A DNA stretch of 64,000 nucleotides from Escherichia coli (GTDB taxonomy: Bacteria; Pseudomonadota; Gammaproteobacteria; Enterobacterales; Enterobacteriaceae): NCBI RefSeq assembly GCF_044324875.1, contig NZ_CP172185.1; one strand, 5' to 3'. The position numbers and the translations under genes are program-made. Under the pieces are notes generated by a model that had not been told where the DNA came from, did no database searches, and saw only the letters and a list, made by a program, of their open reading frames with translations. Below are positions 44,375-44,764 of the stretch, piece after piece; positions within the stretch are counted from its first letter, which is position 1; each line of letters begins with the position of its first letter.

Positions 44375-44764
44375 ATGTAAATTATCAATAAAAGGCGTTA
44401 TTTTATAATTATTTATAATGAGTTGTGAGTGTTTATTTTATTACGGTTGGTAGAGATATACAAAAAGTATTTTTTTACAGTGGGTTCGCTATTTTAAAAA
44501 GGAATTCATATGAGGAAAAAATATAATTATGTTATTTATTGGCAGATTGAATTGACAGGGGGCAGAAATCTGAGGGTAAGAAAAGTCAGCAACTACAATC
44601 CACTACATCAACAGACCAGAAATCGCGTGCCGCGATACGCTGGAAATACCCGTAGATTGAACTGGCGGATGGTGTGACTGACATCGGTCAGTGATGACTT
44701 TTTAGCAAACTATGTTCGATCAGTCAGCATATTTGCTGACTGGTCGAATTGACTAACAATGATG

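Follow-up and report, generated by a model that had tools for sequence, protein, structure and literature searches.

The window analysed here, that is, the whole stretch of 64,000 nucleotides of Escherichia coli DNA, carries elaD and yfbL, and in this yfbK-less arrangement yfbL is the next gene downstream of elaD on the same strand (Table 1). Protein matches named ElaD show 100% identity to the product of the window's elaD, and the gene has a GC content of 34.7%, whereas that of the window as a whole is 51.7%. A spacer of 390 bp, bounded by the yfbL start (44374) and the elaD stop (44765), contains two palindromes, here called P1 and P2. An earlier note on this DNA had located both palindromes and given the length of the spacer, and the letters and ORF positions agree with it on these points. 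The locus was also mapped onto the annotated loci of a K-12-like genome (L001), strain 135 and Nissle. In L001, yfbL and elaD are separated by yfbK, a + strand gene that is convergent with elaD over a 70-bp gap, in which the MG1655 RefSeq annotation holds no feature and no repeat.

Table 1. Features at the yfbL-elaD locus, in window positions
Feature	Position	Strand	Description
yfbL	43403..44374	-	M28 family metallopeptidase; start codon at 44374
Former divergent yfbL/yfbK promoter region	44375..44509		aligns to the K-12 yfbL-yfbK spacer, L001 2176-2312
yfbK remnant	44510..44694	+	three pieces: 44510-44634, 44635-44655, 44655-44694
Boundary zone	44655..44667		second yfbK deletion junction at 44655; left edge of the elaD-linked segment at 44667/44668
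P1	44677-44692, extended 44675-44694	+	actgac-atcg-gtcagt, 6-bp arms, 7/8 when extended
P2	44715..44748		34-nt hairpin, 15-nt arms 44715-44729 / 44734-44748, loop TATT
elaD	44765..45973	-	deubiquitinase ElaD, 402 aa; from the ORF list and the RefSeq annotation of a 99.6%-identical genome

Judging from the alignments, the spacer between yfbL and elaD is a decayed remnant of yfbK, in other words a pseudogene. By blastn, window 44250-44634 corresponds to L001 2051-2444 at 74% identity with indels, a match that covers the 5' end of yfbL, the yfbL-yfbK spacer and the first ~130 nt of yfbK, while window 44655-44900 corresponds to L001 4001-4246 at 95% identity and covers the last 40 nt of yfbK (44655-44694, L001 4001-4040), the 70-bp gap and the 3' end of elaD. 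Between them, window 44635-44655 matches L001 3768-3788 at 19 of 21 positions (E 0.004), and these 21 nt are probably a scrap from the yfbK interior. The spacer resembles K-12 yfbK, a vWA-domain lipoprotein gene, in the order and orientation of the aligned pieces; it differs from it in the frameshifted, 74% identical 5' part and in the absence of about 1.5 kb, which was lost as two internal stretches, about 1.3 kb and 0.2 kb long, with junctions at 44634/44635 and 44655. In the 5' piece (44510-44634, about 125 nt) the lipobox is destroyed along with the frame, and no intact reading frame is left in the remnant. The 55-aa ORF that can be called mechanically at 44510-44677 is the frameshifted start of yfbK, and in strain Z142-4 an overlapping remnant ORF is annotated as a 'hypothetical protein'. 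The former divergent promoter region still serves yfbL, and promoter-like matches within it occur at chance level.

The yfbK-less form is found in 2577 complete E. coli genomes. About 1,600 further genomes match the query only rightwards of approximately 44655, and those listed have yfbK there. All five of the yfbK-less genomes sampled, which come from different lineages, have the same two junctions, and given these common junctions the loss was a single old deletion event in the sampled yfbK-less E. coli. It had been proposed in the earlier note that the palindromes might be sequence left at a deletion or insertion junction where yfbK would sit in K-12, and that genomes with and without yfbK should be compared. 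The comparison supports the first half of this idea, as the spacer aligns to pieces of yfbK and does consist of its remains, but the palindromes themselves are not at 44634/44635 or at 44655, and both are present in the yfbK-intact K-12 locus. P1 and P2 were therefore not made by the deletion of yfbK, and P2 predates it.

The smaller palindrome is accounted for by the gene in which it lies. Read in frame, it forms part of GTG ACT GAC ATC GGT CAG TGA (VTDIGQ*), with the TGA stop at 44692-44694, and the C-terminus of K-12 YfbK reads ...ELADGVTDISQ*; P1 is thus evidently the last six codons and the stop of the dead yfbK. It occurs in the intact K-12 gene too, where the loop is ATCA and not ATCG, and its arms are broken by substitution in 3 of 13 sampled genomes. 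Perfect palindromes with 6-bp arms and loops of 3-8 nt number 159 in the window, or about one per 400 bp, versus about 107 in Markov simulations. We have treated P1 as a chance palindrome and a relic, and have assigned no function to it.

The description of both palindromes as lying just downstream of the elaD stop fits P2, which starts 16 nt past it, but not P1, which is 72 nt downstream. The GTCAG core that had been taken to tie the two together does not do so either. The window has 3 + 3 palindromes with a GTCAG or CTGAC core where about 1.9 + 1.9 would be expected, which is chance frequency, and the order of the core is opposite in the two cases (CTGAC...GTCAG in P1, GTCAG...CTGAC in P2). 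The five copies of the core in the spacer rank it among the top 1.1% of windows of 390 bp, with each palindrome contributing two by construction. The common core is a coincidence and the palindromes are unrelated, and a chance-level palindrome made of the final codons of yfbK is no partner for P2.

The core of P2 at 44721-44742 (cagtcagca-tatt-tgctgactg) has the perfect 9-bp arms reported earlier, but the complete arms are longer than had been noticed, at 15 nt with one mismatch. This sole mismatch sets T44720 opposite G44743, giving a U.G pair on + strand RNA and A.C on the elaD-sense, minus-strand RNA. In K-12 the arms are perfect (TTCGACCAGTCAGCA-TATT-TGCTGACTGGTCGAA). Folding of the minus-strand transcript, a check that the earlier note had recommended, gave -20.2 kcal/mol (z -5.0) for P2, and the + strand gave -26.5 kcal/mol (z -7.8); none of 200 shuffled sequences folded as well. 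The K-12 version folds at about -29 kcal/mol on either strand, with z-scores of -7.3 and -8.6. Because the DNA is palindromic, the hairpin forms on the transcripts of both strands. P2 is the only hairpin in the 64-kb window whose arms reach 15 nt with no more than one mismatch, and the pattern of its 9-bp core, with up to three mismatches allowed, has one match in the window where 0.02 would be expected. The palindrome is far above chance. Against Rfam 15, P2 scored below every gathering threshold, the best score being 21.3 bits, for a microRNA hairpin model with a threshold of 70.

In K-12-type genomes P2 starts 20 nt past the yfbK stop and fills the 70-bp gap between the convergent yfbK (+) and elaD (-). 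In the window it does not lie between two convergent active genes, yfbK being a remnant. Further information on its history comes from Nissle 1917 (L025), a phylogroup-B2-type genome without elaD in which yfbK converges directly on rbn. Homology between Nissle and L001 stops at L001 4013 (window 44667/44668) and restarts at L001 5507, at the rbn stop, such that about 1.49 kb in K-12 stands for 144 bp in Nissle. The K-12 segment consists of the final 27 nt of yfbK, which include P1, followed by P2, elaD and the region upstream of elaD. P2 is absent from Nissle along with elaD, and a different, REP-like hairpin follows yfbK there. As P2 lies inside the segment that Nissle lacks, it belongs to the elaD-linked segment of low GC content.

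Published transcript data bear on how elaD transcription ends. Among the Rho termination regions of Adams et al. 2021 (PMC7815308, Supplementary file 2) is one on the elaD strand, at MG1655 2,383,800(+), with 165 reads upstream and 21 downstream in untreated cells, 264 and 122 with bicyclomycin, and a Rho score of 3.6 (p 5.8e-8); the method compares 800-nt windows and is of low resolution (PMC7815308). In the MG1655 annotation elaD ends at 2,383,924, and by coordinate conversion P2 occupies 2,383,941-2,383,974, which places the reported region inside elaD, 124 nt before the stop and about 140 nt before P2. Around the 3' end of elaD, bicyclomycin raises the downstream reads approximately 3.6-fold, as calculated from the data of PMC7815308. 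A second Rho region is reported antisense to elaD, at 2,382,764(-), with 274 reads upstream (PMC7815308); this shows antisense RNA crossing elaD, some of which could be yfbK-sense transcripts that have run past P2. The curated MG1655 Term-seq lists, which cover three growth conditions, have no entry for elaD or yfbK and no 3' end at 2,383,900-2,384,099 (PMC7815308), and the TERMITe Term-seq supplements (PMC12207403) have no entry for either gene. Low expression may be the reason that a Term-seq 3' end is missing at P2. In elaD-sense RNA the C:G ratio over the 80 nt after P2 is 1.57 in the window and 1.85 in K-12, and it is 2.4-3.6 further on, at 44600-44300; all of these ratios are drawn from small counts. 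An RNA with such an excess of C over G after P2 is suggestive of a rut-like region.

Taking these observations together, we think it reasonably probable that P2 defines and protects the 3' end of the elaD mRNA after Rho-dependent termination, perhaps with a weak action on the opposite strand, and that it helps to part elaD from yfbL in genomes that lack yfbK. P2 would then act in RNA as a stem-loop at the gene end. Transcription in the elaD sense would pass the stop codon, and Rho would end it in the untranslated stretch beyond, where C exceeds G. Exonucleases working 3' to 5' would trim the RNA to the base of P2, and in this way the 3' end of the elaD mRNA would be fixed and stabilised. The same hairpin would form on the opposite-strand transcript of yfbK or of its remnant, where it may weakly terminate transcription before this enters elaD in the antisense direction.

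Precedent for such a role is provided by Dar & Sorek 2018 (PMC6061677), who described stable stem-loops without a U-tract at the steady-state 3' ends of Rho-dependent E. coli transcripts. Such stem-loops block PNPase and RNase II, and Rho utilisation sites lie just downstream of them (PMC6061677). In its structural features P2 appears closest to this class of protective stem-loop. It shares with the class (PMC6061677) a stable stem just past the stop codon, the lack of a U-rich tract and the excess of C over G downstream, and its gene end is also near a reported bicyclomycin-sensitive region (Adams et al. 2021). P2 differs from the published examples in that the Term-seq lists place no steady-state 3' end at the hairpin, and also in its unusually long and perfect stem, which is a DNA palindrome that folds on both strands.

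The earlier note had named an elaD terminator among its explanations. The gene-end position and very strong fold of P2 agree with this, but there is no U-tract on either strand and no Term-seq 3' end at the hairpin. We regard it as unlikely that P2 works as an intrinsic (Rho-independent) terminator, perhaps a bidirectional one that serves elaD in one direction and yfbK in the other. A very stable stem in the textbook position between convergent genes, as found in the K-12-type arrangement, would suit such a terminator, and on the yfbK-sense strand of K-12 the stem is followed by a partial U-tract (TTAATTAA, 4 T of 8). However, the elaD-sense tail (CATAGTTT) has 4 T in its first 8 nt and a T-weight of just 0.64, compared with 5.1 for a run of eight T, and the + strand tail in the window (TTGACTAA) has 3 T in its first 8 nt. 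A U-tract, defined as at least 5 T in 8, is absent on either strand in the window and in K-12, and a scan with a simple terminator pattern called P2 in neither. No Term-seq 3' end is placed at P2 in the lists of PMC7815308. A strong intrinsic terminator should, moreover, prevent the downstream rise that is seen with bicyclomycin.

Bidirectional intrinsic terminators between convergent genes were reportedly found by SEnd-seq (Ju et al., Nat Microbiol, 2019). P2 in K-12 is similar to them in that one hairpin is centred in the 70-bp convergent gap and folds from both directions. In those terminators a flanking pair of A-tract and U-tract enables the two-way action, whereas P2 has no such pair, and only one gene of the convergent pair survives in the window.

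P2 was found in 4199 of 5426 E. coli genomes, a number equal to the count that matches the 3' end of elaD. The earlier note had also proposed a search for the palindrome elsewhere in the genome, and this produced no further copies: P2 occurs once in the window and once per genome, the two BLAST 'places' in each record being the two strands of the same palindrome. Across 100,044 species-representative genomes, the pattern of the 22-nt core had 18 unrelated matches, none of them enterobacterial, where a rough estimate gives about 9 expected by chance. ElaD relatives were not found in the species-representative collection, and in the ElaD protein search all of the 120 matches listed were from E. 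coli, at 98% identity or more. With a single copy per genome and core palindromes at chance frequency, a dispersed repeat family was rejected as an origin for P2. P2 is like the REP/BIME elements in being an extragenic palindrome in a 3' UTR, and a REP-like hairpin stands at the corresponding place in the B2-type genome, but those elements are dispersed in many copies and P2 has one copy per genome. By eye, P2 also seems unlike the REP consensus.

The exact 34-nt K-12 form of P2 is present in 3718 of 4200 records (88.5%); a further 460 have one mismatch and 22 have at least two. The allele of the window itself (T44720), which is exact over 40 nt in at most 21 records, weakens the elaD-sense stem through its A.C mismatch (-20 versus -29 kcal/mol), and one lineage has four uncompensated changes. 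Among six distinct variants, 10 of the 15 pairs are invariant, 2 have become G.U pairs and another 3 are disrupted in single genomes; no pair has changed on both sides in this set of very similar E. coli genomes. In 13 genomes, which were partly picked for hairpin variants, 5 of 34 sites are variable within P2 and 20 of 112 around it. These observations count against the proposed RNA role of P2, as do the missing Term-seq 3' end, the location of the Rho region within elaD and not past P2, and the antisense Rho region. The first three genomes found with P2 variants all had elaD pseudogenes. In strain EC19 the common A variant of P2 is found beside elaD and yfbK genes that are both intact. A link between hairpin variants and gene loss was considered and dropped, the A variant and the TTTTT variant that follows P1 being found in genomes with intact genes as well.

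It is possible to read these data as those of a neutral palindrome without a current function, which came as part of the AT-rich elaD segment when this was acquired horizontally, and which looks conserved through the similarity of E. coli genomes to each other. The lack of covariation would agree with neutrality, as would the similar density of variation inside and outside the hairpin, the uncompensated changes tolerated in several lineages including that of the window, the lack of a mapped 3' end and the frequent occurrence of elaD itself as a pseudogene. Against this, a perfect 15-bp inverted repeat is far past chance and needs an origin, it is placed exactly in the 3' UTR position, and all 34 nt are retained exactly in the great majority of records. 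On balance we hold a neutral P2 to be improbable.

A further reading, which we consider quite doubtful, makes P2 an insulator that arrived with the horizontally acquired elaD. Such a hairpin, though lacking a U-tract, would stop or trim transcripts at the island edge whichever way they came, and in strains without yfbK it would uncouple elaD from yfbL; its perfect symmetry would have been kept by selection and would not be a sign of recent ancestry.

The suggestion that the palindromes include a regulator-binding site found no sign of protein binding to rest on. The only published binding peak nearby is that of LldR, found by genomic SELEX and assigned to the interior of yfbK, and an LldR operator at P2 was rejected on account of this position and of box sequences that are unlike the hairpin. 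In general, it seems very improbable to us that P2 works at the DNA level, whether as the operator of a dimeric regulator or as a site for recombination or attachment left at the margin of the element by which elaD was brought in. Its perfect dyad symmetry and its closeness to the left edge of the elaD-linked segment, from which it lies 47 bp inwards, would be expected of such a site. On the other hand, P2 is downstream of both neighbouring genes and 340 nt from the yfbL start, which puts it outside a promoter, and the LldR peak is not at the hairpin. No terminal repeats were found flanking the elaD segment and no P2-like repeat lies at its far end. A search of 50,697 phage records returned no match, and in the plasmid collection only six E. 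coli records matched, at least three of which have yfbK and rbn beside elaD while three others are chromosome-sized; nor did the scan of 100,044 genomes find a copy of the core motif in enterobacterial genomes. With no terminal repeats and no phage or true plasmid copies, P2 as the end of a mobile element was also rejected.

Finally, we find it scarcely credible that P1 and its T-run (GATGACTTTTT) form a small terminator for leftover transcription from the old yfbK promoter, making a tandem stop with P2: P1 is the only site in 44300-44900 to pass the simple terminator pattern (+ strand; 1 versus 0.2 expected), but it passes because of a TTTTT run that begins 6 nt past the stem (T-weight 0.58), the stem is weak (-6 to -11 kcal/mol, z -1.5 to -1.8) with arms that are not kept in all genomes, the same bases are coding sequence in K-12, and the TTTTT variant is present in yfbK-intact genomes as well and is thus no response to yfbK loss.

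For annotation, these results mean that the 390-bp 'intergenic' stretch, and 'hypothetical protein' calls in its counterpart in related genomes, of the kind seen in one genome, should be read as a yfbK pseudogene remnant, and that the elaD transcript can be regarded as having its natural 3' boundary at P2. P2 is an ordinary feature that is by now largely explained, and nothing here touches a long-standing open question. If P2 does act on the elaD mRNA as a gene-end stem-loop after Rho-dependent termination, it would be one more example of the known class of U-less protective stem-loops, and it might help to explain how elaD, a weakly expressed and horizontally acquired gene, is insulated from its neighbours.

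Comparison of loci showed that the window and the B2-type genome of Nissle 1917 differ by an indel covering the entire elaD-linked segment, whose counterpart in Nissle is 144 bp with a REP-like hairpin, as against approximately 1.49 kb with elaD. The longer version comprises the final 27 nt of yfbK, the P2 hairpin that lies just past the elaD stop, elaD itself and the elaD upstream region. One of its junctions falls 9 codons ahead of the yfbK stop and the other exactly at the rbn stop. The GC content of elaD is 34.7%, versus 51.7% for the window.

Features at the elaD locus and corresponding positions in other loci
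Feature	Window	Location or counterpart
485-aa ORF matching nuoN, then yfbM	41273-43300	
Stretch divergent from K-12	~44310-44634	Initial ~20 yfbL codons to yfbK 5' remnant, inclusive
elaD-linked segment	44668-46163	L001 (K-12-like locus) 4014-5506; L025 (Nissle 1917) 4217-4360
Palindrome ATCGCTCTTAAT...ATTGAGAGCGAT (12-nt arms, one mismatch, 6-nt loop)	45335-45364	Within elaD coding sequence
Hairpin AACAGGGC-aagtttc-GCCCTGTT	46124-46146	rbn-elaD spacer

Across the yfbL start and the yfbK 5' remnant the window shares only 74% identity with K-12, with indels, while the sequence flanking this divergent stretch on either side is approximately 95% identical. Such divergence is far above the usual level within E. 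coli, and it suggests that the stretch is an old or imported haplotype rather than the product of recent decay alone. At 41273-43300, yfbM comes directly after the ORF matching nuoN, an order also annotated in Nissle 1917 and in strain 135, which has 99.6% identity over a 551-nt query that spans the yfbL-elaD spacer. In K-12, unlike in the window, the neighbour of yfbM is yfbN, and yfbO and yfbP are located between nuoN and yfbM as well.

Of the two further inverted repeats at elaD, the hairpin in the rbn-elaD spacer is followed by TTTTTAATAAT on the + strand and is therefore in terminator orientation antisense to rbn and elaD. It could act as a stop, ahead of rbn, for antisense transcripts that cross elaD; a simple terminator pattern scan made no call at this hairpin. 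The 22-nt pattern of the P2 core, CAGTCAGCA-N4-TGCTGACTG, also occurs in an uncultured Clostridia metagenome-assembled genome (prefix CAMEEX01; L013-L016), and its presence on four different contigs suggests a repeat family of that genome's own, unrelated to E. coli.

In E. coli strain MB06021 (L027 2541-3950), IS5 lies directly past the yfbK stop and is followed by ompC, and both the P2 hairpin and elaD are missing, which looks like an IS5-mediated rearrangement at the yfbK end. RefSeq annotation records elaD as frameshifted or with an internal stop in several genomes (L004, L005, L006, L033), and yfbL as frameshifted in O157:H7 and others (L031, L032). The small elaD/yfbL neighbourhood is eroding across many lineages.
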